From a virus: a stretch of 64,000 nt of DNA. The notes under the pieces are model-generated. The model did no database searches, had not been told where the DNA came from, and worked only from the letters and a program-made list of their open reading frames with translations. Numbering within the stretch: the first letter of the stretch is position 1; every line of letters starts with the position of its first letter. The translations under genes were made by a program, and so were the position numbers. This document shows, piece after piece, positions 3,206 to 45,688 of this stretch. The DNA is taken from the IMG/VR virus record IMGVR_UViG_3300020185_000022; one strand, written 5' to 3'.

Positions 3206-3609
3206 TATTCAAATATGTAAGTGTCGCCATCCTCAAAAATGAATGTTACTCCATCTTCGTAGATTTTAGTATCTCCTGTAGTTGCAGCAGCAGCTACTGT
3301 AGTGACGACTGAGGTTGTTAATTTAATATAGTAATTGAATTTGTCTACCATGTTTTTAGCTTCTGTAGCGTCTATCAGAGAGCAGGAATTGCAATCATAT
3401 TGGCAGTAAACATCTGCTACTATGCTAGCAAGAAGGAATTTTCTCTGTTCTTTGCGTGCACATTCTACTTCTCCTATAGAATAAAGACCCTGAATCTGCT
3501 TAGCCTTGGCTATTAAGTTAGCCTTCATTTGATTGTAGGTGCTAACAGTATAGGTCCCAGAAGGAGTATACGTGATATCGCATGTGGTCGATGTTGAGCA
3601 GCAGGCCAT
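3205..3609 (-). CDS. Cys-rich hypothetical virion-module protein
   Basis: 134 aa. Start and stop are coupled with neighbours (ATG/TAA overlaps). Cys clusters: MACCSTSTTC, VYCQYDCNSC. Confidence 0.55.
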   Translation of the reverse strand: MACCSTSTTCDITYTPSGTYTVSTYNQMKANLIAKAKQIQGLYSIGEVECARKEQRKFLLASIVADVYCQYDCNSCSLIDATEAKNMVDKFNYYIKLTTSVVTTVAAAATTGDTKIYEDGVTFIFEDGDTYIFE

Positions 3610-4226
3610 TAGTTACATTTACAGTTTGATGTTGCAGAGCAATATTTATCTAGTAGTTTCTGTATCTGAGCAAATGAATTATCATCATTAATCTCAGCAG
3701 CGTTCTTAAGTCTCTCTAAGTAAAATCTCATAGAGAGTAGAGTTTCTTCGTTTTTACGAATGCATTTAGCACAACTAGTCAGATCCATATTGATCATTCT
3801 GTTGTCCATGCAGATTTCGTATTCGCAGTAGATTAGCTTATATAGTGTTGCACTAGTTGACTCTAATCCTTCTGAGGTATCTGTTATTACTAAGGAAAAG
3901 GACCAAGAACCTGCATCTAATACAGTAGTGGAACTTAGACCTAGGTCAGTAAGTGTTATAGTTTTTGTGGCATCTGATGTTCCTGGTGTAGATGCTATAA
4001 TCTCAGTAGCCACTGAAACAGTTGTAGTTGTTGCATCAGGAAAGGTAATAGTAAGAACAGCAGTATCAACATTTTCTGCTTCCATGTGAGTAGCAGGATC
4101 ACTTCCATCATTGTTTCCCCAACCTGTGGTGTTGGTGGACGCATCATAGAGTCCTGTAGTATCTGTCCAGACTAGTGTATTACAATCACAGCCTGCAGTA
4201 ATTGTAAAAGTAGGAGTTGTGGCCAT
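3609..4226 (-). CDS. Cys-rich hypothetical virion-module protein
   Basis: 205 aa with a Thr/Ser-rich N-terminal half and a helical Cys-rich C-terminal half (CEYEIC, SCAKC, CSATSNCKCN). The layout resembles 3205..3609. Confidence 0.55.
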   Translation of the reverse strand: MATTPTFTITAGCDCNTLVWTDTTGLYDASTNTTGWGNNDGSDPATHMEAENVDTAVLTITFPDATTTTVSVATEIIASTPGTSDATKTITLTDLGLSSTTVLDAGSWSFSLVITDTSEGLESTSATLYKLIYCEYEICMDNRMINMDLTSCAKCIRKNEETLLSMRFYLERLKNAAEINDDNSFAQIQKLLDKYCSATSNCKCN

Positions 4227-4256
4227 TTCTGAGTAGTTATGGGTTTATACAAAGAA

Positions 4257-4276
4257 AGCTGGAATCCCCTCCAGCT
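4257..4276 (-). terminator. Hairpin downstream of 4346..5794
   Basis: AGCTGGA/TCCAGCT 7-bp stem. The minus-strand tail is TTCTTTG. Confidence 0.35.
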
Positions 4277-4345
4277 AATCTTTTAAGACGATGGCAGAAG
4301 AACTTAGAAGTAATTCGCCAGAGGGGGATTCAGCTTATTTATTTA

Positions 4346-5794
4346 CTATACGTAAAGTTGGTTGTTTGCATCAGAGTCGCCAGCAGTTGTGACAGCTCCG
4401 TGAGCAGCGATAGTATCGAGCTCAGCAAGCATTACCTTACTTTGTGTATTAACGTCTCCAGCTGTACCGTTGGTTCCGTCAGAGATTTCCATATAAACGA
4501 TGTTCAATCCTTTGCCTGTTCCGTTGTTTGTAACGAAATCATCCAATTGAGTTGATACAGGTACTACCAATTTGGCGTAACCTCTCCATTTATACTCATG
4601 TGCTAGTGCATCATCAGCCAAGTTTTGACCAGAAGATAAAGGCGCAATAGCTGCTTTAGGCTCAGTCTGAGCTGCCAAAGTAACGCTTGAAGGAGGAACT
4701 CCAATCAAGTTTGCATTCTGTCCGTCGAATCCTGCAGCGAAGTACTCGTTAAAAGCAACTTCTGCATAGTTTCCAACTCCTGGATTAGCTTTTTGACTAG
4801 TAGTAACTGTTGCAGTACCAAAAGCATCGCTAAGAGTTACTACAAATCGGTTTACTTTCCAATCTCGCATAGTACCAGTGCTGAATGTTTGTGGACGGCT
4901 GGTCATTTTAATTCCCCAGTCTCCTGTCATTGCAACTCCTTCTCCACCTAGAGTAAGTGAGTGAACTGCTTCATCATTCCAAGTAGCAGTATCACCTTGC
5001 CAAGGGTAGTCAAGAGTTACTTGAGTACCTGAATCAACAGAGGCAATCATATAAACTGGATCAGTTACTGCATCGGTTGCACCTGCAGTGCCTCCAACAG
5101 AAAAACGTACCCAGTCACCAGCAGCTAGATCTTGGCTATCTGCCATAGTTACTGTTTTAGAACCATGAGTTAAAACCCAGTCACCTGTGGCATTAGTGTC
5201 AGCCATGTCTACTCCAGTTGCAGCTGTGTCGTTGACACGCTCAAACTTGATGTAGTTGTCAGCAGTGCTTCCGAAATTCTTCAATGCGTTAGCATAAAGA
5301 GAATTCATAAACAAAGCTTGAGTAGCATGAGAAGTAGTAGAAGTACTAGTAGTTTGGATATACTTACGAGTAGGTTGTGATCTATTCAACTCGTCGTTGT
5401 TTTGAATCACAATCGTAGCAGAGAAAGTTTCTCCTTTAGTAGTAGTAGTTTCCATAGAACCAGTGGTTCCATTAGATCCTAGATAAGAAATTTGTGGGTC
5501 AGGAAGAGTAAAAGGAGTTACACTAGAAACTGTAAGTCCTGGAATACTTCCATCAGCATTCAAAGTCATAGGAAGAGATTTGCGAACAGGCTTATCTGTA
5601 CCCATACCTTGAACAAAATATACTGTTTCACCACCAGAAGCTGCTGACAAATCAATAGCGGTAAGAGACGCATCAGCGAGTGCGATGGTTCCTAACGCTA
5701 GACTTGAAACATCAGATCCGACAGCTGCGGCAGTAGCTAACTCTCTACCAACGGTAACGCTGATGAGGTTGTCTGTGCGTGGAATTGCGGCCAT
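4346..5794 (-). CDS. Virion structural protein of unknown role, probably abundant
   Basis: 482-aa ORF in the morphogenesis operon, followed by a hairpin at 4257-4276. No sequence motif recognised. Confidence 0.55.
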   Translation of the reverse strand: MAAIPRTDNLISVTVGRELATAAAVGSDVSSLALGTIALADASLTAIDLSAASGGETVYFVQGMGTDKPVRKSLPMTLNADGSIPGLTVSSVTPFTLPDPQISYLGSNGTTGSMETTTTKGETFSATIVIQNNDELNRSQPTRKYIQTTSTSTTSHATQALFMNSLYANALKNFGSTADNYIKFERVNDTAATGVDMADTNATGDWVLTHGSKTVTMADSQDLAAGDWVRFSVGGTAGATDAVTDPVYMIASVDSGTQVTLDYPWQGDTATWNDEAVHSLTLGGEGVAMTGDWGIKMTSRPQTFSTGTMRDWKVNRFVVTLSDAFGTATVTTSQKANPGVGNYAEVAFNEYFAAGFDGQNANLIGVPPSSVTLAAQTEPKAAIAPLSSGQNLADDALAHEYKWRGYAKLVVPVSTQLDDFVTNNGTGKGLNIVYMEISDGTNGTAGDVNTQSKVMLAELDTIAAHGAVTTAGDSDANNQLYV

Positions 5795-5827
5795 AATATT
5801 TAAAATTTAGAGTTTAGTTATATTTAA

Positions 5828-6592
5828 TTATTCTAAAGTTTTGATACCGAGAATACTCTCAATATCTGGACGATCCGTAGAGTCCTTAGCAATATGCTTC
5901 GCGATCTCTACTATCGCCTCATGAGTTGCATCATCCAATACACAGTTTCTTTGATTACCTGCAGTATCGAAGTCAACCACGACAGCTGGAGGAAACCTCA
6001 GGTATCTTATATTGTAGCTAACTACATTAAAGTTACCATCAGTTACCAGCTCGTGTCTTTTAGCTGTTGCAGCAATTGGGACTGTGGCATCAGCTTGAGA
6101 GCTGTCTGTCGTTCTAGAGAATTGCATTCTCCAGATTAGTCCTTCATTGTTTGCAACAAAAGGTTTCTTATAAGAATTCCTTTTTAGTCTTGTGTACTCA
6201 TTATGAGATACTACATCGACTGGTACATAAACGTTCGATCCAGTATTGATACAGTCTGCGACGTTTGTCTCAACCTCTTCAAGAATCGTATACATGAAGT
6301 CAGTAGGTAAGTCATAAAAAACACCATATTGCAAAACACCAGTTTGAGATGCACTAACAGTTAATGCGCTACTATTCCTAATCAACTCAGATAGTCCTTG
6401 AGATCTGATCTCTGTCTCTTCAAAACCTTCTTGCTTGGGATTGTTCATCCTGTCAAGGGTATACTTAATAAACCACATTTGTGCAGTATTAAGCATGAGA
6501 GACAACTCAGCATCTGTCCAGCCTGGAGAAGACAGTGAGTCTATTCTATCTGAATAGAGCTCTAGATTAGTTGCCATTTCGTTAGCAGTCAT
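5828..6592 (-). CDS. Virion-module protein (unknown role)
   Basis: 254-aa ORF downstream of the capsid genes. Confidence 0.55.
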   Translation of the reverse strand: MTANEMATNLELYSDRIDSLSSPGWTDAELSLMLNTAQMWFIKYTLDRMNNPKQEGFEETEIRSQGLSELIRNSSALTVSASQTGVLQYGVFYDLPTDFMYTILEEVETNVADCINTGSNVYVPVDVVSHNEYTRLKRNSYKKPFVANNEGLIWRMQFSRTTDSSQADATVPIAATAKRHELVTDGNFNVVSYNIRYLRFPPAVVVDFDTAGNQRNCVLDDATHEAIVEIAKHIAKDSTDRPDIESILGIKTLE

Positions 6593-9192: not shown

Positions 9193-10410
9193 TTAGCCTT
9201 TTCCTTTTTCGAGCTTCTCAAGAAACGAGCTTGTACCAGCTGGAAGCTTATGCGTTCCACCTCCTACGACTCGTTGTTGTTGTAGAGCAGTATCTAGGTC
9301 GTTGGTTGCCTCAGTTTTAATCAAGGCTTTTAGCCTGTCTAGGTTTGGTTGAGGAGTACCGTCGTCTGCTATATTGAATAAACCGTAATGATTGTACAAG
9401 TGAAGCAGCTTATTAAATTCAGCTGGATTCTTCATTTGATTAGCCATGACAGCGTTCAAAGCTCTACCGTTGTTATCATAACCTACAGCTTCAGTTAAAG
9501 ATTTTTTCAAAGCGTCTTTATCCATTTTAGACAAGGGCACATCTTTAATGATGCTCTCTTGAGATTCTATGGAAGAAATAAGCTTATCCATGCTCTTCTT
9601 TCTGTTTTCAGCTGCAAGTCTATCTTGCTCATCAGCAGCTTGCTTTAAAGCATTCTTTTGGTCTGTTAGTGCTTGCTTAATTTTAGGCACTGCTTCTTTA
9701 CCACGTTCTGATAACTTATCCAGTGATAAAGCATCTCCGACTGTTCTATCTATTTCTGTTTTGTCTAGACCCTTAAGGCTTAGATAATCTCGATACGCAT
9801 CTTCTAGATCTGTATCTGATAGACTAGCTTCGTCCATAGCATCATATCTTGCGATCATGTTTGCTAATGGCTTAGCTTGGTCGTGGGAAATTCCTGCATC
9901 TGTTAGACCTAAGTATTCTTTCTGTTCATTTGGGAGCGAACTCTTCCATGACTCATGAATACCTCTAGAATTTGTTTCAATTGTTTTAGACACTAGCTCA
10001 AGTATTTGAGCAGAGCCTTCGACACTTGTAGGGTCAAATTCATCAGTTGCGGAAATGATTCCATCTTTTACTAGTTGGCTTGCTAAAGCTGCATAAACAT
10101 CACTGTTAATGCTACTAGTAGTTTTTTTAGTCTTGTCGCCTGTGTCCAGAGTACCTGCTCGCTTAGCTTCTTCAGCTGCTGCAATATCTTCTGGGGTAAG
10201 CAAATTCAAAGAACTTTGTCCTGTAGCGGCTGAATTAGCAGGTACATCTATTGGAGGTGTGCCTGTATCATCTGTCGCTGTTTCTGAAGGAGTAGTAACA
10301 GGTTCGTTTGTTGGTTCTGGTTTCCCGATGTTTCTTACTTCATCTGGACTTAAGAACTGAACATTTGAAAACTGTTCTGCTTTAATTCCTTCTTCTGTAT
10401 TTTCTGCCAT
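9193..10410 (-). CDS. Scaffolding protein candidate
   Basis: 405 aa, acidic, low in aromatics, with long predicted helical/coiled-coil stretches, located immediately upstream of the capsid gene. Confidence 0.55.
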   Translation of the reverse strand: MAENTEEGIKAEQFSNVQFLSPDEVRNIGKPEPTNEPVTTPSETATDDTGTPPIDVPANSAATGQSSLNLLTPEDIAAAEEAKRAGTLDTGDKTKKTTSSINSDVYAALASQLVKDGIISATDEFDPTSVEGSAQILELVSKTIETNSRGIHESWKSSLPNEQKEYLGLTDAGISHDQAKPLANMIARYDAMDEASLSDTDLEDAYRDYLSLKGLDKTEIDRTVGDALSLDKLSERGKEAVPKIKQALTDQKNALKQAADEQDRLAAENRKKSMDKLISSIESQESIIKDVPLSKMDKDALKKSLTEAVGYDNNGRALNAVMANQMKNPAEFNKLLHLYNHYGLFNIADDGTPQPNLDRLKALIKTEATNDLDTALQQQRVVGGGTHKLPAGTSSFLEKLEKGKG

Positions 10411-23030: not shown

Positions 23031-23516
23031 TCTAAGATGTATAACATCTATCTTGTATAACATATAACCCTGTAAAACTTCCACACCATGGATAGAACTG
23101 AAATATCTTTGTACTTGTCATGCAAGTCAAACAAGACGAAAGTCAACAAAAGAATTACGAATGATGGCACTGTAAAGGCTGCATTCAACAGAGGACAAGA
23201 CTATGCTGAGTCTATCCTTGTAGGTAAGAGTTATCAGCATAAGAATATGAGCAGAGTCAGCCTATGTGAACAACCTAGTTGCAGCTAGGTATTCATTAGG
23301 GTAAACGCACAAATGATTCAATGTGTGAGACTACTAAGACCTACAACAAGCCTGCAAAGCTTGGGAGCTGATCACTCTAAGAAAAGTACTTCGTAGATGG
23401 GAATCCCTATGTATGCTCTGTGTTGTATGATTGGTCACATAAGAAATGCTGAAGAGCTAGAGCTGTCGCTCAAATACTAATTCCTCATAAGCCTACAATG
23501 AGGTAAGAAATAAAAA

Positions 23517-23632
23517 ATAACAAGCTGTATAGTGTGGCTAATCACTTATGCACATAGTGGTAAGATGAATACTAGTCTAATCTGAAGCTTTTCCTGTATA
23601 ACTTGCTCTAAGTGCATTGTATGGCTTGTTAT
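23517..23632 (+). ncRNA. Hairpin module B1 (AGCUG/GGCU family)
   Basis: The closing helix 23517-23536/23613-23632 is 20 bp, 6 of them G:U. The core is AAGCUGUAU opposite GUAUGGCUU. Confidence 0.45.
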
Positions 23633-23717
23633 ATACTTAGTAGAGCTGTCATGACTGATGAATCAAAAGACATGTTAGCAGTAAGTCTCTGCCGTTATGA
23701 TGGTTCTACTAAGTATA
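23632..23717 (+). ncRNA. Hairpin module B2 (AGCUG/GGUU variant): 24-bp helix
   Basis: TATACTTAGTAGAGCTGTCATGAC (23632-23655) pairs with GTTATGATGGTTCTACTAAGTATA (23694-23717). There are 20 Watson-Crick and 4 G:U pairs, uninterrupted, with a 38-nt loop. Confidence 0.55.
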
Positions 23718-23722
23718 ATACA

Positions 23723-23825
23723 GAGCTGTTGAGTAGAAGAACAAAGTAGCAGTAGTGACTGCGATCCCACCAAATTAAGCACATAATGCCTAGTTACGGT
23801 TACTCTAGGGGCTATTCAACGGCTC
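23723..23825 (+). ncRNA. Hairpin module B3 (AGCUG/GGCU family)
   Basis: GAGCTGTTGAGTAG (23723-23736) pairs with CTATTCAACGGCTC (23812-23825), 14 bp including 2 G:U. Inner hairpins are GCAGT/ACTGC and CCTAG/CTAGG. Confidence 0.5.
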
Positions 23826-23843
23826 AATGATACATTTTCAGGG

Positions 23844-23930
23844 GGAAGAAGAGGGGAGTACAACAACACAACAGTTTAGAATAACTGTAAGCGCATTTGT
23901 TGTTCGATACGAACCTCTTCTTTTATTCTG
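23844..23930 (+). terminator. Long composite hairpin ending island B (terminator-like)
   Basis: Three nested helices: 23844-23854/23914-23924 (11 bp including 2 G:U), 23862-23868/23898-23904 and 23871-23876/23883-23888. The 3' side runs into TTTTATT. Confidence 0.45.
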
Positions 23931-24050
23931 ACATTTCAGCACACTCTAAATATACCTCTATTCTCATTTTAAATAGCTTTAGCGCTTAGATCTCTTGGTT
24001 TTGATACCTACATACTAGCGAGCTATTATAACCTCTTAAATCACCTGAAA

Positions 24051-24278
24051 ATGAATACAACTGAAAAACTAGATACTGGAGACATTGAGATACTATTTAC
24101 TCATCTCTATCGCATCATTGAGAACAATAATAGTGATGTTCCTACTAAAGAACTAGTAGATTCATATCTTGCTGATGAGAAACACACAATCAAGTCATTT
24201 CTTGACCTTGTGAAAACAGATCATCCTGAATTCTTAGACTCTGACAGTTATACTATCAGAGCTCTATATAGACTATAA
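24051..24278 (+). CDS. Hypothetical protein
   Basis: 75-aa ORF preceded by a TTAAATCACC junction motif. Confidence 0.5.
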   Translation: MNTTEKLDTGDIEILFTHLYRIIENNNSDVPTKELVDSYLADEKHTIKSFLDLVKTDHPEFLDSDSYTIRALYRL

Positions 24279-24374
24279 CTTATTTACAACTAGATGCATG
24301 TTGTAAGCTCACCAACCTGTATACACAGGACAGAGCTTACCGTGCGCTTATTGTAAGTATTAAATCACATCATC

Positions 24375-24524
24375 ATGAGAGAACTTGTAATTAAAGGCTT
24401 AACTAAACTTGTTATCTACTTCCTGATGTTAATTGTTGCTAGCTTAATGACTATTGTCTTTCTATTCTTTGCTTTTTCTTCAGCAATTGTAGTTATGCAT
24501 ATGCTCATAGCTGCGTTCTCTTAA
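24375..24524 (+). CDS. Small membrane protein (49 aa)
   Basis: Below the track cutoff. My translation: MRELVIKGLTKLVIYFLMLIVASLMTIVFLFFAFSSAIVVMHMLIAAFS. It is preceded by TTAAATCAC. Confidence 0.45.
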   Translation: MRELVIKGLTKLVIYFLMLIVASLMTIVFLFFAFSSAIVVMHMLIAAFS

Positions 24525-24546
24525 ATCACCCCTTAAATCAATCACC

Positions 24547-24831
24547 ATGAAACTATTCATTTTATTTATAATCTTACTCCTAAGCACAGCTTGTGAGAAA
24601 GAACAATACATCTATCGCATTTATTACACTCAGACATGTATTGAGTGGAGTGATGGTAGTACAGAGAAATCATCTCATAGTAGATGGCCTTTAGACCATG
24701 TTGCTACTGAACTAGAAAAAGAATTCATGATTCAAATGTACCTTAACAGTGTTACAGAGAACAGTGACTTTGATAAATCATGTTACAAAGACATGTATGT
24801 AGAACTATGCACTGAATGTACACAGTATTAA
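24547..24831 (+). CDS. Probable lipoprotein
   Basis: Signal peptide plus Cys, MKLFILFIILLLSTAC, followed by EKEQ. Confidence 0.55.
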   Translation: MKLFILFIILLLSTACEKEQYIYRIYYTQTCIEWSDGSTEKSSHSRWPLDHVATELEKEFMIQMYLNSVTENSDFDKSCYKDMYVELCTECTQY

Positions 24832-24896
24832 ATCATATAAGACAAGGAGTGTAAACAGCGCTCCTATGTCTTGCTTTTCTTTAACATCACATAGTT

Positions 24897-25190
24897 ATGG
24901 CATATAAACTACCTGTAGATTACAACTCATTAGATTGGCGTAAAGGTGAAAAGCGTGCTGTTAGAGAGCAGTATGTTAAAGAACAAGACGGTAAATGTAT
25001 GTATTGTGGTACACCATTAAATAGTGGACCACCTCATGCAATTACTGACAAAAACATTAATTGGGACTTATTCCCACCAAATTTCCTAAAACATCCTGTG
25101 CATCTACAACATGACCATGAAACTGGTATGACTGAAGGTGCTGTACATGCTTACTGTAATGCAGTATTATGGCAGTATGAAGGAAGATAA
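24897..25190 (+). CDS. Endonuclease VII-type (His-Me finger) nuclease
   Basis: 97 aa with CMYCGTPL ... LQHDHETGMTEGAVHAYCNAVLW, matching the EndoVII pattern C..C ... DHDH.tG..rG..C..CN. Confidence 0.65.
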   Translation: MAYKLPVDYNSLDWRKGEKRAVREQYVKEQDGKCMYCGTPLNSGPPHAITDKNINWDLFPPNFLKHPVHLQHDHETGMTEGAVHAYCNAVLWQYEGR

Positions 25191-25201
25191 ATCACGTTGT
25201 T

Positions 25202-25456
25202 ATGAAGACAATTAACAAATCTTATCTTCGAACATTCATTGCAGTGCTTATTATTCTAGTTGTTGGACATGTTCTAACATCTTGTGATACAATGCCTACT
25301 TCTTTCACAGTAAAAGACATGGAGACTACGAAACCTACTCTCCCAGTTCCTACTTGTAAGGTGACTTTGCATAGTAATTATGGAGACTCTTATTATATTA
25401 TTTGTCCCTGTGATTCAGTGAATGTTGGGGATACATACATAGTTTTAAAACAATAA
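25202..25456 (+). CDS. Probable lipoprotein
   Basis: Signal peptide with an LTSC lipobox (…VVGHVLTSCDT). Confidence 0.55.
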   Translation: MKTINKSYLRTFIAVLIILVVGHVLTSCDTMPTSFTVKDMETTKPTLPVPTCKVTLHSNYGDSYYIICPCDSVNVGDTYIVLKQ

Positions 25457-25476
25457 TAATCATTAAATCAAATACC

Positions 25477-25845
25477 ATGAAGTATCTTAAAACGCTTTGG
25501 CCAGCATTTATAGCCTTAATTCTTATTGCTTGTGCTACAATTGCTCTTAGTAGTTGTACCAAAAATGATGATGACATCGAAAAAGTTGTAAGTAATACAA
25601 TTGCACAAACCCAAGCTACATGCTGGGAGTGTGAATTTGGAGCAACTTACATGCTTTGGGAAGTAAATTCTCAAGGTGATACTGTAGCTAGTATGTGGAG
25701 AGTTACAGTCCAAGACTCTGTGATGTATAATCCAGACATTGATAGTAATTATTACTATAGTAGTAGTACTGTTGCGATTCCAGTAGTAGTTGATTCATTG
25801 TATCATGATGACTTGTACATTAGAAATTGTACTAAAACTCCATAG
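25477..25845 (+). CDS. Probable lipoprotein, possibly surface-exported
   Basis: Signal peptide with an LSSC lipobox followed by TKNDDDIE. The acidic run after the Cys resembles the Bacteroidota lipoprotein export signal. Confidence 0.55.
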   Translation: MKYLKTLWPAFIALILIACATIALSSCTKNDDDIEKVVSNTIAQTQATCWECEFGATYMLWEVNSQGDTVASMWRVTVQDSVMYNPDIDSNYYYSSSTVAIPVVVDSLYHDDLYIRNCTKTP

Positions 25846-25847
25846 TT

Positions 25848-26099
25848 ATGATGAAAAACAACAACAACATAAGAGAGTATCTCAAAGCATTTGGGATACC
25901 TCTCTTAGTTTTAGTACTGCTATCATTAGCAGGTAACTGGCTACACTATCATATAGTTATTACTGTTTTGTATTTTGTTCTAGCTTGTGTTTATGGCGGA
26001 ACTTTAATTTTTGCAGCAAGAAAACTTAATTCTTTTTTACCTGTACTTATCATAGGTATTCTATTGCAAGCTGCTTGTTTACTTTTAGTTTTTACATAA
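25848..26099 (+). CDS. Small integral membrane protein
   Basis: 83 aa, about three hydrophobic helices. Confidence 0.5.
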   Translation: MMKNNNNIREYLKAFGIPLLVLVLLSLAGNWLHYHIVITVLYFVLACVYGGTLIFAARKLNSFLPVLIIGILLQAACLLLVFT

Positions 26100-26111
26100 T
26101 ACCAATAACTC

Positions 26112-26408
26112 ATGACAAAGAAAAAACAAAATCTATGTGTTAGCTGTAAACACTGGCACAGCGGACAAAAAGACATAAATTATCATGAAGATATCGGTAT
26201 TTGTGTAAATCCTGATATGGCATTTAATATTACAGATGGAAGAAAAGCTGGAATATTAGATCAAAAAAATCTTAAAAATAGAACACATGTCACAGGCAAT
26301 TGTGCTCATGATTTTGAACACAAAAAGAGTGCTGTCGTACCTTCTAGATATTCACTTGTTACAAATGAGTTATTTGGGTGTATACTTCATATAAAACGTA
26401 ATGAGTAG
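26112..26408 (+). CDS. Cys-containing hypothetical protein (possible Zn-binding)
   Basis: 98 aa with CVSCKHWH ... GICVNP ... GNCAHD. Confidence 0.45.
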   Translation: MTKKKQNLCVSCKHWHSGQKDINYHEDIGICVNPDMAFNITDGRKAGILDQKNLKNRTHVTGNCAHDFEHKKSAVVPSRYSLVTNELFGCILHIKRNE

Positions 26409-26751
26409 TCTAAGCAAAAAAGAATTTTATGAGATTATGAATTATAATTTATTAACTCATAAAACTCTAAATAATGTTAGAGGAGAAAGACTTCCTTATA
26501 ACATAACGCAAGAGGACACTTATTGGGAATACTACATCAAAGATTTAGAGGTAGACGATATACTCTATATTCCTTCCCATAAAGGAAAAAAAATAAAGGC
26601 TTTATGGGGAATAAGTTCATTTGAAAAGATTGGAGATATGAGGATAATTAAGTTCAATAGGCTGGAGCCAACTTCAACAAGCACGTTTAGAACTAATGAG
26701 TTCATAACCTTTCCAATGGACAGTAGAACTTACTTTAGAATACTAAGATAA
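26401..26751 (+). CDS. Hypothetical protein
   Basis: 116-aa ORF, the last gene before ORF-free island C. Confidence 0.5.
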   Translation: MSSLSKKEFYEIMNYNLLTHKTLNNVRGERLPYNITQEDTYWEYYIKDLEVDDILYIPSHKGKKIKALWGISSFEKIGDMRIIKFNRLEPTSTSTFRTNEFITFPMDSRTYFRILR

Positions 26752-26857
26752 TTAAGCTGTATGTGTTTCTAATTACTCAGCATCGACCGATATCTATCGG
26801 TTGTACTATAGTAGTTAGTGAATAGATCAAAATCAAAACTGAAACCATACGGCTTAA
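26752..26857 (+). ncRNA. Hairpin module C1 (AGCUG/GGCU family)
   Basis: TTAAGCTGTATG (26752-26763) pairs with CATACGGCTTAA (26846-26857), 12 bp with 1 U:G. Its 5' flank aligns with that of B1. An inner hairpin is ACCGATA-tct-TATCGGT. Confidence 0.5.
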
Positions 26858-27406
26858 GAAGCCCTGATAAATACACGAGACCACTTGTGTATAAATAGGC
26901 AGATACCTGTGGTCAGGTATTGGGATGAACTTGGAATTTAAATTCAGGGTCCCGCAGGATAGAAGAGCAAGTGAGCTATCTCTTTAATATACCTGTGAAG
27001 AAAAAAACATAATTAGCAATCTGTAAATATATGATGTCTATAGAAGCGCGGTGTTGGCTACACCCTCAAGGGTAACTTAAATTACTGGTATTAAGCTATA
27101 TCAATGACTAATTATTATAACTCTCATCCAATTGCTGGTCTGCACCACTCTAAAATTGGGTTCTTCAAAACCAAAGCACTATAAACTTGGAATGTTGCAA
27201 CATATCTCCTCGCGTTTGGGCAGTACAATAGTCATCAAGGATCGCAACCTTGTGAGAGTTAACTTACTTAAGAACATAAGACAGTGCAGTGAGGAATGCT
27301 GAAAAGGCGGGGAAAACTAGTAACTAGAGAACCGTAATCCTATAACCTGATAAATGTTCTTAACTTATTCAAGGTGAGTACTCAAGCCTTTATGGTGGAG
27401 TACACT

Positions 27407-27639
27407 AAACTACCTAGCTGATAACAAACAGCAATGAGTCTTGAGAATAGACTGAACCCCGATGGGCGGATTGGGAATAAACAAAATGAGGTCCATTGAA
27501 TATGTTTATCAGTGTAACCACTACCAAGAGTGGTGATGTTTGTTTGATGAGTTAGTATATTAAGATGTGGACTCCCATTGGGGGAGAAGCTAGTCTTAAT
27601 GAAATCTTCCACAACACTTGGAAGTGGGCTAGGTAGTTT
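27407..27639 (+). ncRNA. Domain C2 closed by an AGCU/GGCU helix
   Basis: AAACTACCTAGCT (27407-27419) pairs with GGCTAGGTAGTTT (27627-27639), 13 bp with 1 U:G, spanning about 230 nt. TT follows. Confidence 0.45.
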
Positions 27640-27667
27640 TTCATTAAAATCTTAAAACATTTCAATC

Positions 27668-28024
27668 ATGGACAAGAAAATATTCAATGAGGACTCATTA
27701 GGTGAGGAAATCAAAAAGCAGTGGGGAGAGTTTGGCGCTCACTACGAAGTATACCAAATGCTTCTAAAGGCATTAAAGGCAACGGAGAAAAGCGAATACA
27801 CAGAATGGGCAGGTCAACGTCAGATAATGCACGACAAGATAGAAACCCTTCAGCAAGAACTCAAAAGGGTGAATCTTAGTAAATCGCTATTGGCCTTTGA
27901 GTTAAAAACATTGCAAGGATTTCACACGGAGTTGTACAATAAGGTTGAGGCTGACGAAACAATAGAGCCTATTACTAAATACGTATCTCCAGAGGATTTA
28001 GATGAACTAACCAACAACCAATAG
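27668..28024 (+). CDS. Hypothetical protein (helical)
   Basis: 118-aa ORF. Confidence 0.5.
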   Translation: MDKKIFNEDSLGEEIKKQWGEFGAHYEVYQMLLKALKATEKSEYTEWAGQRQIMHDKIETLQQELKRVNLSKSLLAFELKTLQGFHTELYNKVEADETIEPITKYVSPEDLDELTNNQ

Positions 28025-28267
28025 AGAGATGAACTCAAAAATAGGAAGAACTTATAGCGTAGTTAAATTTAGGTGGGTCAGGTTCAGAAGGCTTTTTCCT
28101 AATGGAATCAAAATAATAGAACCAACAACAAGTAGAAAGTAATAGTTTATCACACGCTGAAGAACGGAAGGCTGCCTCTATATAGTCCTATGTTGAAAAA
28201 AACTCTCAGATGAATAAGAGGGACTATTATACCTATATCAAATATTAATCACCAAATACCTTGAATT

Positions 28268-28456
28268 ATGGAAGATTACACTTCTATGTCTGTAGAGGAC
28301 ATTAAACAGGAAATGACTAGACTTGAGAACGAAGTAGAGTTAAAGAAAGAAGCTCGTAGGAGTAGTAAAGAAGAGCGAACTAAGCTTTATGAACTTGAGG
28401 AGATACTCAGGGACAGATATATTACTCATGTAGTAAATGAAGATCTTATATCATGA
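28268..28456 (+). CDS. Hypothetical coiled-coil protein
   Basis: 62-aa ORF whose stop overlaps the next start (ATGA). Confidence 0.45.
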   Translation: MEDYTSMSVEDIKQEMTRLENEVELKKEARRSSKEERTKLYELEEILRDRYITHVVNEDLIS

Positions 28457-28740
28457 AAAAGTTTGAAGATTTGCTACAATATGAAATCAACATGGCAATT
28501 GAAAATGTTGATGTACTACGAAGAGTGTGCAATGCACTCTGGGAAAGTTATGGGGAAACAAGTGATGAAGGTTACTTAACTACTCATGAACAAAATCTTG
28601 AACGTCTAGCATTTGCACAACAACGTGTGACTAGACTTACTGATTTAGCTGCTCATTTTAAAGAAGAGTGGGATAACATCAGAATGGACAATGCCACTGT
28701 GTACATGGAAATGGGCACATTAGCTTTTAGTCTAAACTAA
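28453..28740 (+). CDS. Hypothetical protein
   Basis: 95-aa ORF. Confidence 0.5.
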   Translation: MKKFEDLLQYEINMAIENVDVLRRVCNALWESYGETSDEGYLTTHEQNLERLAFAQQRVTRLTDLAAHFKEEWDNIRMDNATVYMEMGTLAFSLN

Positions 28741-28861
28741 TACATACAAGGACTAAGTAGTAAGAGCATAGCTGTTATGGTTATAATAAGTACAGGAATT
28801 ATGTCTTGGAAATTTTAGCTGTAATGGCGCTCTTCACTACGCGTCCATAATACATACCATC

Positions 28862-29227
28862 ATGATTACTCTGATTATAACAATTTACGTAGTTATCTGT
28901 CTACACATGACTTACAGATTAACATTTGAATTTAATGAGCATGTTGATAATACTATTAATTGGCACCATCCTGTGCCATTTACTTTGTGGTTCTTAATTA
29001 TACTTTTAGGCGTTAGTCTAGTTATATTTTCTATGATGTTTAAAAGACTTTTTAAGAATATTATTATGGTATATCTTGCTTATAAACTGCAGAAAAAATT
29101 AAAGGAAGTTATGGGAGAAACTTCTCCTGAAATGACAAAGCAATTGCAAGGAAGCTTAAGAAAACTTACTTGGGATGTGTTTACTTCTTCTTACATTAGA
29201 TTTCGTCCTAAAGACAGAAAATCTTAA
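28862..29227 (+). CDS. Membrane protein
   Basis: 121 aa, two to three hydrophobic helices. Confidence 0.5.
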   Translation: MITLIITIYVVICLHMTYRLTFEFNEHVDNTINWHHPVPFTLWFLIILLGVSLVIFSMMFKRLFKNIIMVYLAYKLQKKLKEVMGETSPEMTKQLQGSLRKLTWDVFTSSYIRFRPKDRKS

Positions 29228-29243
29228 TCATTAAAAACTAGCC

Positions 29244-29648
29244 ATGACACATATATTTTACTTTTTTACTCTTTTTGCTTTAGCTTGGGAGTATAAAAAC
29301 TTTACTGATCCATATGCAGTAAAGCGTTGGGCTGATTATGCTAAAAAGCATATGAAAAAAGAGAATGTAGAGAGCAGAAAGAAAGCTGGAGAAGAAATAA
29401 TAGAAAGTAGTGTAGTTTTCTTTTTCCCTTTGAATCTTTTGTATATGTTCTGGGCATTTGTAGGATTATTCACTTCACAGTGGGCATTGTTTGCTGCATT
29501 ATACCTATTATCTCTGATAAAGAGAAAAGATAGGTCAGCTACATATCGTCGTATTAACGGCTTTATTAGCTTTTGCATCCTAGTGTTTATAATACTAAAC
29601 AAGTACCATTTTAAACTGGACTTGTGGTCCATGCTTACTAGCATGTAA
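29244..29648 (+). CDS. Membrane protein
   Basis: 134 aa, about four hydrophobic helices. The antisense ORF 29336..29680 is judged a shadow. Confidence 0.5.
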   Translation: MTHIFYFFTLFALAWEYKNFTDPYAVKRWADYAKKHMKKENVESRKKAGEEIIESSVVFFFPLNLLYMFWAFVGLFTSQWALFAALYLLSLIKRKDRSATYRRINGFISFCILVFIILNKYHFKLDLWSMLTSM

Positions 29649-29763
29649 TGCAGAAAATTTGCTGTAGTGCCTTCCCCCAAGAGAGTGAGAGAATTAAAGT
29701 TGAGTCACAATTGGCACTGCAGTTCATTTAAAGAAATAATCAAATTCTCCAACACCATTACAT

Positions 29764-30189
29764 ATGGATGAAAAAACTAAAAAAATATTCGAACGAGCTA
29801 TAGTATCTGGGAACACTGAATTAGTGTCTAAAATGTTACTTAGCGATCTTCTTAAAAATGTTACTAATGCATCTGATCCATTTAATGCACCTGGTCCACT
29901 AACAGAATATTTAGATGGCAAGAAAGAGTCTGTTTGGTCTAAACGTGTAGCCATGGATAAGTATGATCCTCTAGAAGAGAAGCTTGCAGCTTCTAGGCTT
30001 TGTAAAAACCATGAAAGGGATATTAAAAGAGCCTTGACAGACTTTAGACTGTCCAAAGGTATGATAACTCCTAAACTCTTTTCGTTTTTATTTTTGAATG
30101 AGATTGATGTTGACTTACGTATACTTCTTCATTCAGAATTTGTGAAACTTGTTGATGATATTATTAGTAAGTCTAATGAGCTTAAATAG
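29764..30189 (+). CDS. Hypothetical protein
   Basis: 141-aa ORF. The antisense ORF 29724..30056 is judged a shadow. Confidence 0.5.
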   Translation: MDEKTKKIFERAIVSGNTELVSKMLLSDLLKNVTNASDPFNAPGPLTEYLDGKKESVWSKRVAMDKYDPLEEKLAASRLCKNHERDIKRALTDFRLSKGMITPKLFSFLFLNEIDVDLRILLHSEFVKLVDDIISKSNELK

Positions 30190-30535
30190 AAGAGAAAAAA
30201 GAGCCGCTGCAAGAGCAGAGAAGTTAGGAACTTTATTAAAGGACTCTCCTAAAATAGCAACAAAAGATTACAGTAATTTACGTGGAAACTTTGCTACTAC
30301 TATAGAACACTGGATTACTAGATCAAGATTTAAGTATATCGAAAGATGTAAAAGGTCTATAAAAAAATCTAATCGTAGAAGAAAGAACAGAGTGAATAAA
30401 AGAGTCTTTGATAATCTTATCTTAAATGGACTGGTTATAAGTAGTAATATTGAGCATATTCAAGCTTTCTCTCTTTCTATTCCCCATGTACTAACTAAAG
30501 AATTTAAAGAAACACTTTATAGTTGGAAATTTTAA
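30176..30535 (+). CDS. Basic hypothetical protein
   Basis: The track ORF starts at 30149. I prefer the ATG at 30176 (MSLNRREKRAAARAEK...). The protein is strongly Arg/Lys-rich. Confidence 0.45.
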   Translation: MSLNRREKRAAARAEKLGTLLKDSPKIATKDYSNLRGNFATTIEHWITRSRFKYIERCKRSIKKSNRRRKNRVNKRVFDNLILNGLVISSNIEHIQAFSLSIPHVLTKEFKETLYSWKF

Positions 30536-30984
30536 TACTAAATCAAATTAGAAAAATTCTTGCAAACGAAAAAGAAGTTGCAAAACTTCTTGGATAATAC
30601 AATACGAGGTCACACGCAAGTGTTGAGGACTATTCTCGTGTTAAGGGGAACTGAAATCCTTTCAGCCCTAATATTGAAACTGTATAGTAATGTGCAGAAT
30701 ACTACTGGATGTATGCCATAAAGCCAGAATAATAGTATTGGAAGTTGGCAGCTTGACCATTTATTTAGCCCACGCTAGAATGTAGGACGTAAAGCCCTTG
30801 TCTAGAGAGTAGGACGACATAAATGGTGCTAAAACTTTTAAATATTCAGGTGCATAGTATCAAATAAAGTGGAGAGTGTGAGTACTCTATCGAGCCAGAA
30901 GCTCTTTCTACACATTTGATGTAATTAACCTTCAAAAGCCACAGGCAGAGATCCGAACTGCTAGATATTATGTGCCTTAGAATA

Positions 30985-31055
30985 TTAGCTGTGCGTACAT
31001 ACTTTCAAGGGCCAGACGCTTAACCTGGATTCCTGAAAGTGTATGCATTGGCTAG
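30985..31055 (+). ncRNA. Hairpin module D1 (AGCUG/GGCU family)
   Basis: TTAGCTGTGCGTAC (30985-30998) pairs with GTATGCATTGGCTAG (31041-31055), 14 bp including 4 G:U, with a 1-nt bulge. This stacks on ACTTTCA/TGAAAGT (7 bp) and then CCAG/CTGG. Confidence 0.5.
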
Positions 31056-31103
31056 ATAGTAATCTGTAGAACAGTAGGGCGTTCTACTCATTTGTCAGAG
31101 TTT

Positions 31104-31152
31104 AGAGAGGGGGTTTTGAGGTGTCATGCCCTTTCGTTTCCCCCTCTTTATC
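31104..31152 (+). terminator. Hairpin ending island D (terminator-like)
   Basis: AGAGAGGGGG (31104-31113) pairs with CCCCCTCTTT (31140-31149). The U-tail is weak. Confidence 0.4.
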
Positions 31153-31165
31153 TCGCTTAACTAAA

Positions 31166-31173
31166 TACGTTTG
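31166..31173 (+). promoter_or_regulatory. TAnnTTTG box
   Basis: TACGTTTG ends 2 nt before the ATG at 31176, just after the island-D terminator-like hairpin. Confidence 0.4.
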
Positions 31174-31175
31174 AA

Positions 31176-31511
31176 ATGAATAAATTTCATAATCATATTC
31201 ACCTCGACGGAGGAACTGTCATTACTGCTGTAGGTGAATATAATGACCAAGCTATGTGCTTGGAAGTAGGAATGGCAGTATGTTCTAATAGAGATAATTG
31301 GAACAGAAGAAAAGGCAACATGATTGCCAAAGGAAGACTCGATAAAGGTAGACTTTTCGCAAGTATTCCAATGAAAGGTGAACCATCTGTAGAGATGTGG
31401 AAATCTTACATGCTCGAAACTAAAGTCAAAATCGCTGACCAAGTTGAGCAAGAGAATGTTACCCCCAAGAATTTAAGAGTGGCTCGAATTGTCGATGTTA
31501 CTAAAGCATAA
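31176..31511 (+). CDS. Hypothetical protein
   Basis: 111 aa. The TACGTTTG box ends 2 nt before the ATG, so the mRNA is possibly leaderless. Confidence 0.5.
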   Translation: MNKFHNHIHLDGGTVITAVGEYNDQAMCLEVGMAVCSNRDNWNRRKGNMIAKGRLDKGRLFASIPMKGEPSVEMWKSYMLETKVKIADQVEQENVTPKNLRVARIVDVTKA

Positions 31512-31526
31512 TTCATGGTGAATTGA

Positions 31527-31606
31527 AGAGCTGTAAGCTTACTTCTAAGATTACTCTGGTTCCCGCTGGTTCCTTTAGGGTGCTTAGGAGTTTTGCTTAT
31601 GGCTTT
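31527..31606 (+). ncRNA. Hairpin module E1 (AGCUG/GGCU family)
   Basis: AGAGCTGTAAGC (31527-31538) pairs with GCTTATGGCTTT (31595-31606), 12 bp including 3 G:U. It stacks on ACTTCTAAG/CTTAGGAGT (9 bp, 1 U:G). Confidence 0.5.
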
Positions 31607-45371: not shown

Positions 45372-45688
45372 GAGCAGAATTGCTCGCTTGCTGTAGAGGG
45401 ATGGTTATCACTGTGCCTCGTCCCCTGAAAGGATGGAGGCATAAATAACTACCTTTACGGTAGGCAAAAAAAGTAGTTTATCTTCAACCAAGTCGTATGG
45501 GAAGGTAAATTTCAAAGATGGAGGAAAGCGGCTGTTATACCTTCATACCAACATAAGTGCTGAGTAGTTACTGGATGGAGATAGCTGTAAAGTCTCTAGA
45601 GCTCTCACCACCATCAGTCTTAATGAAGGCTGATAGTGAGAGAGTTCTAAGCCCAGTAACTACTTTGGCACTTTTTTATTTCATAACT
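45372..45688 (+). other. ORF-free structured region upstream of the primase gene (candidate origin or regulatory RNA)
   Basis: A perfect 12-bp inverted repeat AGTAGTTACTGG (45563-45574) / CCAGTAACTACT (45653-45664). A second stem is GTATG..AAGGTA / TACCTTCATAC (45495-45507/45537-45547). The motif GATGGAG occurs three times (about 45432, 45516 and 45574). Confidence 0.45.

Follow-up and report, generated by a model that had tools for sequence, protein, structure and literature searches.

At least ten hairpin domains of 60-230 nt, all on the plus strand and all closed by helices that carry one common box, are present in the 64,000 nucleotides of phage DNA analysed here (the window). The box consists of 5'-(A/U)GCUG(U)-3' paired to 5'-(A)YGG(C/U)(U/A)-3', in which a C-G step and the U•G wobble after it are invariant, and judging from its sequence it looks like a common site at which abundant non-coding RNAs (ncRNAs) would be recognised or cut. 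A first-pass annotation had proposed seven of these hairpins (B1, B2, B3, C1, C2, D1 and E1), all of which fold as claimed. The family is larger than proposed, with three more members (28770-28829, 45386-45465 and 45555-45680) in two further spacers, and the reading of these sequences as a plus-strand hairpin family is supported.

Genomic context of the hairpins

The window is part of a ~92 kb marine crAss-like phage genome, whose closest relative in the databases searched has a DNA polymerase that is only 46% identical; by analogy, the host is probably a member of the Bacteroidota. The non-coding islands, together with several short spacers that hold hairpins, lie in a rightward (plus-strand) gene block, and the hairpin islands span 23.3-24.05, 26.75-27.67, 30.5-31.2 and 45.4-45.7 kb on the plus strand. 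Members B1-B3, C1-C2 and D1 are located in long ORF-free islands, E1 and the hairpins at 28770 and 45386 each occupy a spacer between same-strand ORFs, and several islands terminate in a terminator-like hairpin and U-run. Coding DNA with a reassigned stop codon was rejected as a description of the islands, as read-through of TAG, TGA or TAA gives no long ORF; with any one of these suppressed, stop-free runs do not exceed 116 of 254 codons on the minus strand (in island B) or 100 of 305 on the plus strand.

Rfam 15 yielded no match at gathering score in the whole window and chance-level matches only at E<=5 between 22.9 and 32.2 kb, in agreement with the earlier statement that no described RNA family has this signature. 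For example, B2 and D1 reached 24 and 21 bits against miRNA precursor models whose gathering scores are 73 and 85. Neither ARAGORN nor the Rfam models detected a tRNA or tmRNA in the window, and both recovered the tmRNA of phage phi14:2 as a positive control. The islands had no match among 50,697 phage records (GenBank phages), and a search of IMG/VR with a pattern derived from the modules also returned no matches.

Members of the hairpin family

All coordinates below refer to the plus strand, and z-scores are based on 200 dinucleotide shuffles per hairpin. The closing helices span 12-24 bp, as originally described. An unbiased scan of the 64 kb ranked the helices of B2, B1 and B3 first, second and third in strength among uninterrupted plus-strand helices, and these three domains lie back to back in island B with 0-5 nt between them. 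B2 (23632-23717) has a 24-bp closing helix (dG -32.9; domain z -6.05) with the core GAGCUGU/AUGGUUC. B1 (23517-23632) is closed by 20 bp with the core AAGCUGU/GUAUGGCUU and folds at -30.8 on the plus strand (z -2.1) and -21.7 on the minus strand; in the fold of the whole island its 3' arm can alternatively pair with 23345-23357. B3 (23723-23825) has a 14-bp closing helix with the core GAGCUGU/AACGGCUC (z -3.3). B0 (23458-23467) is a further 5' arm, unpaired and identical to that of B2, confirming that TAGAGCTGTC occurs twice exactly, at 23458 and 23641; it could pair instead with the 3' arm of B2 (11 bp with 23698-23708). The island ends with a large, G+C-rich, terminator-like hairpin that lacks the core (23844-23931) and is followed by UUUUAUU.

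In island C, C1 (26752-26857; z -6.37) begins directly after the stop codon that ends the ORF upstream and is closed by 12 bp with the core AAGCUGUAUG/CAUACGGCUU. C1' (27090-27114; ATTAAGCTATAT..GACTAATTA, repeat family D8), which is paralogous to the 5' flanks of B1 and C1, has no 3' partner and is found immediately upstream of a conserved pseudoknotted RNA element (27120-27259; ACUCUCAUCCAAUUGCUGG ... CAAGGAUCGCAACCUUGUGAGAGU) that is outside the hairpin family. This element has a homologue at positions 3633-3747 of the relative L006, within the syntenic island of that genome, and others in contigs of uncultured viruses, which contain 135 distinct copies. It is a widespread, uncatalogued RNA, and its presence identifies island C as an ncRNA locus. 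Downstream, C2 (27407-27639) is a multi-branched domain of 233 nt (MFE -73.4, z -4.44), with a 13-bp closing helix (..CCUAGCU/GGCUAGG..) followed by UUUUU.

The remaining members are dispersed. The 60-nt hairpin at 28770-28829, in a spacer of 121 nt, has a 13-bp helix (GCUGUUAUGGUUA/UAGCUGUAAUGGC) with five G•U pairs and folds on the plus strand (-17.7, z -2.0), whereas the minus strand is unfolded (-3.4, z +1.1). D1 (30985-31055) carries the core UAGCUGUG/CAUUGGCUA in a helix of about 13 bp that includes a one-base bulge (z -4.17; minus strand -3.05), and island D ends with a coreless, terminator-like G+C-rich hairpin and U-rich tail (31103-31158). E1 (31527-31606) has a 12-bp closing helix with the core GAGCUGUAAGC/GCUUAUGGCUU (MFE -32.9, z -4.27; minus strand -16.1). 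The 80-nt hairpin at 45386-45465, which follows an ORF ending at 45371, is closed by 14 bp (GCUUGCUGUAGAGG/CCUUUACGGUAGGC) that form the fourth-strongest plus-strand helix of the window (z -6.82; minus strand -2.12). The long hairpin at 45555-45680 (GUGCUGAG.UAGUUACUGG / CCAGUAACUA.CUUUGGCAC, with a GCUG/UGGC core and then UUUUUUAUUU) is located immediately upstream of a primase-like gene.

Two other plus-strand structures were not assigned to the family. A spacer hairpin at 29661-29723 (z -3.73) has an 11-bp helix (GCUGUAGUGCC/GGCACUGCAGU) and was left out because its pairing register differs (U-A, not U•G). A domain of 130 nt in island D (30848-30977; z -3.37) has a 14-bp closing helix without the core, which indicates that hairpin domains from outside the family are present in the islands as well.

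Conservation and enrichment of the box

A register-anchored alignment of 12 members shows the C-G pair and the U•G pair in 12/12, bearing out the conserved wobble of the proposed AGCUG/GGCU core. The G pair of the box is G-C in 10 members and G•U in two, and the pair next after the U•G is G•U in six and G-C in five. The core is uniform in general, with the exceptions of C2, whose closing helix stops directly past the U•G, and B2, which has G•U where others have G-C. The pairs flanking the box comprise four to six pair types each; the sequence there varies freely and pairing is kept, as the first-pass annotation had noted for one flanking pair; it should be noted that such 'covariation' among paralogs of one genome is partly circular, because the helices were picked for pairing. 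The height of the box above the helix base ranges from 1 to 12 bp, and beyond the 5-6 nt of the box the arms and interiors of most members share nothing. The likeness already seen between the 5' flanks of B1 and C1 extends to B0 and C1', with A(A/G)GCU(G/A)U N9-12 CUAAU in common and ACTAAT directly after B0 as after B1, C1 and C1'.

The frequency of the core (5'-GCUG/3'-GG with U•G) is well above chance. It is present in 5 of 14 plus-strand helices of dG<=-19 in the unbiased 64 kb scan, compared with 4 of 273 helices (about 1.5%) on both strands of 1.06 Mb of unrelated phage loci and none of the seven strong helices on the minus strand of the window, an enrichment among strong helices of ~25-fold that is confined to the plus strand. 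Likewise, the reported excess of AGCTGT was recovered: the ORF-free DNA (3.3 kb) has ten copies, or 3.0 per kb, which is 12.6-fold the density of 0.24 per kb found in the plus-strand coding block, and the islands have no copy of the reverse complement.

Selection acts on the plus strand

Plus-strand folds surpass both their shuffles and the minus-strand folds, which were weaker in all six of the seven original hairpins that were folded this way (all but C2; z -1.5 to -5.1). Of the 16 strongest plus-strand helices, 10 lie in the islands, which account for about 5% of the window. The absence of mismatches other than G:U, which had been feared to result in part from the way in which the helices were extended, persists when both types of transition mismatch are allowed, with 30 G•U against one A·C (p=3e-8) and no compositional bias. 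This shows that selection on the hairpins is restricted to the plus strand, and that its target is single-stranded nucleic acid of plus-strand sense, in all likelihood RNA. Whole-island z-scores (-4.3 to -6.25) are unremarkable, given that coding segments of 700 nt from this strand reach -4 to -8.

Related phages

In the Cellulophaga crAss-like phage phi14:2, the nearest cultured relative, long intergenic regions are expressed as early, persistent ncRNAs that are commoner than most mRNAs and map to the g004-g005 and g005-g006 junctions (bioRxiv 10.1101/2020.03.07.982082). By analogy, we infer that the islands of the window are transcribed as stable, abundant ncRNAs. Both phages are of the same kind and have their long ORF-free stretches at the same position, where the rightward early/replication block opens, within its first kilobases. 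However, the phi14:2 regions have no sequence similarity to the islands of the window; one of them (2905-3590) shows no unusual degree of structure (z -0.28) and lacks the box, and the second has a tmRNA, whereas the window has none. The relative L010 has a gene-free island of 1.56 kb, in which most of the strongest helices of the locus are found (the locus has 24 strong helices on the plus strand and six on the minus strand), and the box is absent from the similarly structured islands of both L010 and phi14:2. In L008, the strongest helix (19 bp) has an identical GCUGU/ACGGC box, a single look-alike in a distant relative; this helix and its neighbours enclose entire small ORFs, back to back.

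Possible roles of the box

We tentatively regard the box as a candidate site for processing or binding of double-stranded RNA, a reading that draws on analogy with the RNase III sites of phages T7 and SP82 and that we consider quite possible, though short of probable. One helix-binding factor, most likely host RNase III or else another double-strand-specific nuclease or binding protein, would recognise the box in double-stranded RNA and, at the foot of every domain, would cut or mark the long early transcripts. Cutting would free individually folded RNA domains, and neighbouring mRNAs would keep hairpin-capped, exonuclease-resistant ends. With coaxial continuation, each member has at least ~20 bp (12-24 bp uninterrupted), which corresponds to the stem of about two turns expected of an RNase III site. 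Domains that lie back to back, single members in intercistronic spacers and the L008 helices that bracket ORFs would also be consistent with processing. RNase III stems bracket rRNAs in a back-to-back arrangement, and the closing stems found here recall those of 16S and 23S rRNA. No RNase III or dsRBD Pfam domain was matched in the phage genes from 21 to 62 kb, so that the factor would be the host's or an unrecognised protein. Several features fit less well. The variable distance from box to base (1-12 bp) is odd for a measuring nuclease, and a host factor shared across the clade is not expected to need the box, given that L010 and phi14:2 do without it. Bacterial RNase III sites are not known to have a conserved U•G, and the sequence determinants described for them are weak. 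Moreover, coding regions of the same strand also outfold their shuffles, which counts against this reading in that structure as such is not specific to the islands.

Processing hairpins cut by RNase III in early transcripts were reportedly described in 1983 by Dunn and Studier for T7 (R0.3-R1.3) and by Panganiban and Whiteley for the Bacillus phage SP82 (sites A-C). Those sets and the present one are alike in being irregular hairpins of ~20-30 bp that are mutually similar in sequence within one phage; the spacers of polycistronic early RNA in which they lie are putative in the present case, and cutting would leave stabilising hairpin ends here as well. Unlike the T7 and SP82 hairpins, the present ones have a 5-6 bp box with an invariant U•G at variable stem height, many enclose 50-200 nt of additional structure instead of simple loops, and several are stacked in long non-coding islands and not between cistrons.

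The variable position of the box would fit binding better than measured cleavage, and the box may instead be an operator for an RNA-binding protein that is not a nuclease, with the islands serving as decoy or scaffold ncRNAs in host takeover or anti-defence. A U•G beside a C-G that is kept in 12/12 while neighbouring pairs change would suit such a role; wobbles of this kind are a classic feature of protein or metal recognition, for instance G3•U70 of tRNA-Ala and the G•U/G-C motif of S15. The many box copies per putative transcript and the analogous phi14:2 RNAs, which are very abundant and still present late, point in the same direction. We nevertheless consider this role rather unlikely, as the small ORFs neighbouring the hairpins are all orphans with no candidate binder among them, and no resemblance to tRNAs, CRISPR repeats or ToxI-like repeats emerged. 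The box could also be inherited sequence and not a recognition site, if plain stabiliser or terminator hairpins were duplicated from one ancestor. The extended 5' similarity of B0, B1, C1 and C1' resembles duplication, as does the exact duplicate of the B2 arm, and U-runs follow three members (C2, E1 and 45555). However, most members have no U-run, and their arms and interiors are unrelated outside the box; divergence is thus saturated and the box, including its non-Watson-Crick pair, is intact in 12/12, which implies purifying selection on the box itself and makes simple inheritance unlikely.

Strand asymmetry by itself does not prove RNA, since G•T is tolerated in single-stranded DNA, and the hairpins might form as priming or initiation signals in plus-strand DNA, either on the lagging-strand template or in DNA denatured for a virion RNA polymerase. 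Cumulative GC skew is lowest near 20 kb, which would make the plus strand of 21-58 kb the lagging-strand template, although the skew may simply track gene orientation. Two members lie immediately upstream of the primase-like gene, and the phi14:2 virion polymerase transcribes single-stranded DNA in vitro. On the other hand, the domains are large and multi-branched, reaching 233 nt and containing internal hairpins, and their restriction to non-coding spacers and the terminators that follow them fit transcripts. In addition, an N4-type promoter for rightward transcription needs a hairpin in the template (minus) strand, where A·C mismatches would arise, and we regard a DNA-level role as quite improbable. 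Mobile inverted-repeat (MITE-like) DNA or chance palindromes would account for the inverted-repeat ends and for several copies in non-coding DNA, and REP/BIME and MITE palindromes are likewise repeated intergenic inverted repeats able to form RNA hairpins. Those units, however, are short, near-identical, genome-wide and found across strains, in contrast to the 5-6 nt box, long unrelated interiors and strand-specific pairing seen here. Target duplications are absent, the 30:1 ratio of G•U to A·C is unexpected for a double-stranded DNA element, no copies were found in other genomes (the GenBank phage records and the IMG/VR pattern search), and the enrichment statistics exclude chance palindromes. 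This explanation, whose mobile-element form had been named among the findings that could overturn the family, is effectively refuted and carries a negligible probability.

With the families in Rfam (ribozymes, riboswitches, 6S, Y RNA-like, GOLLD/ROOL/HEARO and miRNA-like RNAs) the hairpins have only a generic shape in common. One marine crAss-like phage carries a set of at least ten hairpins that share one box and match no family in Rfam.

Plus-strand folding of the hairpin domains

The seven plus-strand hairpin domains described in the first-pass annotation, B1 (23517-23632), B2 (23632-23717), B3 (23723-23825), C1 (26752-26857), C2 (27407-27639), D1 (30985-31055) and E1 (31527-31606), are present at these positions and fold as they had been drawn. 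Compared with 200 dinucleotide shuffles per hairpin, each folds better than its shuffled controls on the plus strand (z = -2.1 for B1, -6.05 for B2, -3.3 for B3, -6.37 for C1, -4.44 for C2, -4.17 for D1 and -4.27 for E1), and the reverse complement is less stable in all six hairpins folded both ways (C2 was folded on the plus strand only). For example, E1 reaches -32.9 kcal/mol on the plus strand versus -16.1 on the minus strand. The closing helices were said to share one core, here called the box, in which 5'-GCUG pairs with YGGC and includes a U•G wobble. This description is correct overall, except that the C2 helix stops at the U•G and that B2 has a G•U where the others have G-C.

The annotation had also claimed that non-Watson-Crick positions in these helices are G•U when read as plus-strand RNA, with the caution that this was partly by construction. 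The asymmetry holds without such circularity: when 13 island helices were re-extended with both G•U and A·C permitted, 30 G•U pairs were found versus one A·C (binomial p=3e-8), although island base composition predicts equal numbers of the two mismatches (GxT 0.059, AxC 0.058). Likewise, the reported enrichment of AGCTGT is borne out, with a density in the islands 12.6 times that of the plus-strand coding block and no copy there of its complement ACAGCT. Scanning the minus strand yielded no further long island helices. Selection for pairing therefore acts on the plus strand in single-stranded form.

It should be noted that general foldability does not set the islands apart. Whole-island folds gave z-scores of about -4.3, -6.1 and -6.25, but 10 of 16 coding 700-nt segments on the same strand (window 21-58 kb) scored equally well, between -4 and -8. 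Whole-island and sliding-window z-scores were hence dropped as evidence. This means either that unusual structure is a general property of the phage's mRNAs or that dinucleotide shuffling is too lenient a null here. What distinguishes the islands is their discrete long closing helices and the common box.

A box shared among the strongest helices

All uninterrupted Watson-Crick/G•U helices spanning 30-400 nt were ranked by stacking energy on both strands, blind to any motif. The top three plus-strand helices in the 64 kb window are those of B2, B1 and B3, and 10 of the 16 strongest helices lie in ORF-free stretches, which make up about 5% of the window. The GCUG core with C-G and U•G pairing occurs in five of the 14 plus-strand helices with dG<=-19, as compared with 1.3% of weak helices in the window and 4 of 273 equally strong helices in unrelated phage loci (1.06 Mb). 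It is absent from strong minus-strand helices of the window and no strong plus-strand helix has it with the arms reversed. This is a real and statistically solid RNA signal, and the proof of the family is this unbiased enrichment of the core among strong helices.

Further members lie on the plus strand at 28770-28829 (a 13-bp helix that folds on this strand only), 45386-45465 (z = -6.8 versus -2.1 for the minus strand) and 45555-45673, where a long hairpin and then a U-run stand just 5' of a primase-like gene. Another box-bearing helix (AGCUG/CGGCU, 13 bp, z = -3.45) is found on the plus strand at 10171-10234, antisense to a late structural gene; it may be due to chance or belong to an antisense transcript. 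When 12 members are aligned in an anchored register, the C-G and U•G pairs are invariant, the outer G pair is G-C in ten members and G•U in two, and the inner G pair is G•U in six and G-C in five; the pairs flanking the box take four to six different types. Paired cells amount to 81.8%, versus 59.6% in column shuffles and 33-50% in slid registers. Because all members were chosen for pairing, this alignment describes the family and is not proof of it.

The longer 5' pattern A(A/G)GCU(G/A)U N9-12 CUAAU(U/C) occurs at four plus-strand sites: 23460 in B0 (at 23458, an unpaired duplicate of the B2 5' arm), 23522 in B1, 26754 in C1, and a fourth copy at 27092. This bipartite arrangement points to duplication or to a second signal, which may be a promoter or a signal of another kind. 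ACTAAT is also common after the island C element (described below) in other phages and is found in an island of Cellulophaga phage phi14:2 (L009, about 3033). A pattern scan of IMG/VR with the extended B1/C1 5' motif gave no matches. Within island B, two alternative pairings were also observed. In the whole-island minimum free energy fold, the B1 3' arm GGCUUGUU pairs perfectly with AACAAGCC at 23345-23357, and a 14-bp helix GCUCUGUGUUGUAU/GUAUAAUACAGAGC (23415-23428 with 23713-23726) would enclose B0, B1 and B2 and overlaps the B2 and B3 arms. These predicted pairings may represent switches or coincidence.

Islands as probable non-coding RNA loci

Islands B (23.3-24.05 kb), C (26.75-27.67 kb) and D (30.5-31.2 kb) are non-coding. 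Hidden coding through stop reassignment was rejected, since no ORF spans them when any single stop codon is read through. As the first-pass annotation had supposed, the signature matches no described RNA family, with no Rfam match at gathering score or E<=5. Neither ARAGORN nor Rfam detects a tRNA or tmRNA in the islands, and megablast and blastn searches matched no part of the islands among 50,697 phage records. Analogies to group II intron domain V, the hammerhead ribozyme (CUGAUGA in B2), group I P1 and the tRNA-Ala G•U were rejected on size and architecture and for want of an Rfam match. A G+C-rich hairpin and U-run closes island B, island D and the spacer at 45.4-45.7 kb, and UUUUU directly follows C2. 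This terminator-like layout fits transcription units that would end before the next gene.

The portal, large terminase and major head protein genes, on the minus strand at 1.9-16.5 kb, are crAss-like by PHROGs and tblastn, and the closest cultured match is phage phi14:2 (35% identity in TerL). Gene strand switches at approximately 21.1 kb, where small orphan ORFs occupy the plus strand from 21 to 34 kb and are followed by replication genes at 35-58 kb. The roughly 92.1 kb genome recurs in public marine assemblies, where at least 68 sample blocks contain copies more than 99.9% identical, and five genome copies compared show no SNPs inside hairpin-family members. The nearest other DNA polymerase among 5.8 billion proteins is 46% identical, no homologue was found of a 111-aa protein flanking the islands, and none of the small early ORFs is conserved in the relatives L006-L008. 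A cross-species covariation test was rejected as infeasible, because the genome copies are near-identical and the databases searched contain no moderately diverged relative.

The sole blastn match of the 8 kb region to GenBank phages is at 25056-25194, inside a 97-aa ORF (24897-25190), with 72-78% identity to hypothetical genes of Vibrio (JA-1, VCO139), Pseudomonas, Agrobacterium and Rhizobium phages. This ORF has a faint Pfam Endonuclease_7 match, which suggests a horizontally shared small nuclease-like gene. In the same region (24037-25470, plus strand), TAAATCA occurs eight times in 1.4 kb, mostly 8-20 nt 5' of the start codon in a run of consecutive small ORFs. Across the whole window it shows no enrichment (22 observed versus 20 expected), and it may be a local translation-initiation or cassette-junction motif.

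RNA-seq of phi14:2 revealed rightward transcription of two long intergenic regions where the rightward early block begins. [quoted passage not shown] The window islands are alike in kind to these early non-coding RNA regions. One of the phi14:2 islands is not unusually structured, and the abundant 'long non-coding RNA' reported at the g005-g006 junction (4031-4500 in NC_021806) contains a tmRNA gene, with ARAGORN tag peptide GSSVQKLAMVA and an Rfam tmRNA score of 46 bits against a gathering score of 47 (E=7e-16). In the relative L010, a 1.56 kb gene-free island at the same place holds most of the strongest plus-strand helices of a locus with 24 strong helices on the plus strand versus 6 on the minus strand. 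None of L006, L007, L010 and L012 has the box, nor do the first 16 kb of phi14:2, including its islands. The relative L008, whose polymerase is 42% identical, does carry it in its strongest helix (19 bp, UGCUGUUAUAGG.../...CCUAUAACGGCA). This helix and two adjacent long-range helices of 17 and 15 bp stand back to back (5445-6235) and enclose, as whole units, a 77-aa ORF, a hairpin domain of 106 nt and a 105-aa ORF. Given that L010 and phi14:2 have islands without the box, comparison of these loci indicates that the structured non-coding RNA locus is a clade feature and that the GCUG/YGGC box is lineage-specific, with L008 as one striking exception. Also in L008, start codons are repeatedly preceded at short distance by the motif CCTATAAC, whose complement GTTATAGG makes up the 5' arm, and T-arm fragments resembling those of tRNAs lie at 4420-4445 and 4730-4750, where ARAGORN calls no tRNA.

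A conserved RNA element in island C

Of the non-coding sequence, only window 27120-27259 (plus strand) resembles any relative, matching L006 3633-3747. IMG/VR pattern scans with either end of this segment each matched more than 100 loci, among which 135 distinct full copies of 46-243 nt were found in uncultured viral loci (L014-L200); the smallest natural copy, of 46 nt, is ACUCUCAUCUAAGCAAGUAAUUCAAGGGUUGCAACCUUGUGAGAGU. The element consists of P1 (ACUCUCA/UGAGAGU), a junction UCCAA(UU)GCAGG, a variable insert that is usually a hairpin, and P3 (CAAGG/CCUUG), which abuts P1 and has a loop of (G/A)UUGCAA or UGCAA. The short loop is confined to UU-containing junctions (at least 25 of about 75, versus 0 of 52), which suggests a loop-junction pseudoknot. 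Its few substitutions are compensatory or wobble, with C-G to U-A twice in P1, C-G to U•G 16 times and to U-A twice in P3, and C-G to U-A once in the pseudoknot, counts that are limited by ascertainment since copies were found through their conserved blocks.

Neighbouring ORFs are always co-oriented with the element and AT-rich sequence lies just 5' of it; no conserved protein partner was found beside the copies. The element is absent from Rfam and from GenBank phages, is rare in prokaryotic genome bins, and often has crAss-type TerL or portal genes only a few kb away. In the window it lies between C1 and C2 and is not itself a family hairpin. Island C is thus a genuine RNA locus, as this element shows, and the element could represent a new ribozyme, riboswitch or protein-binding class. 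Other structured RNAs were seen near some copies: a hatchet ribozyme (81.6 bits) at L065 8591-8727, approximately 870 nt 5' of the copy on that uncultured viral contig, and tRNAs near others, the L113 element beginning 4 nt past a tRNA 3' end. Occurring on more than 130 distinct uncultured viral contigs but neither in Rfam nor in cultured phages, the element merits its own study.

Potential functions of the box

These data establish a helix box that is under purifying selection on the plus strand, as a single strand, in the rightward block only. MITEs and chance are effectively excluded. The reading we favour, tentatively and as somewhat short of probable, is that the box would be a putative double-strand RNA recognition or processing site, because neighbouring domains adjoin, some intercistronic spacers are filled by a single member, the stems span about two helical turns, and precedents exist. 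T7 and SP82 early RNAs carry mutually similar RNase III hairpins between cistrons, to which the window hairpins are alike in kind, and rRNA operons have bracketing stems. Against processing, the height of the box in the stem varies, relatives lack it, and no phage RNase III or dsRBD was found among the genes at 21-62 kb; RNase III is not known to need a U•G. The invariant wobble and variable height are better accommodated by a non-nucleolytic protein operator or decoy array, an explanation that we consider unlikely and that has no candidate protein.

Inheritance of the box from duplicated stabiliser hairpins is rather improbable, being hard to square with divergence that is saturated everywhere but in the box, including its non-canonical pair. 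Hairpins formed in single-stranded DNA on the lagging-strand template poorly fit the multi-branched, terminator-followed and spacer-confined anatomy and are very unlikely. Besides the favoured recognition or processing site, a broader possibility, which we regard as doubtful, is that the islands form a new phage regulatory RNA locus. Abundant early transcripts, probably made by the virion RNA polymerase, would carry many independently folded domains, each displaying the U•G box as a docking site for a single protein; they would act together with the island C element and would not be tRNA-like, CRISPR-like or simple RNase III substrates. The conserved element could then be a new ribozyme or ligand- or protein-binding class typical of environmental crAss-like phages.

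In the searches made here, neither a catalogued RNA family nor another genome matched the hairpin element. Few known viruses are as abundant as crAss-like phages, and the sole transcriptome of a marine member contains highly abundant early non-coding RNAs. With an invariant helix box and its conserved wobble in at least ten domains, this window offers a mutable handle on such early crAss-like RNAs. A processing function would mean that a crAss-like phage organises its early RNA by the T7/SP82 strategy, and a binding function would suggest a new RNA-protein system in phages.
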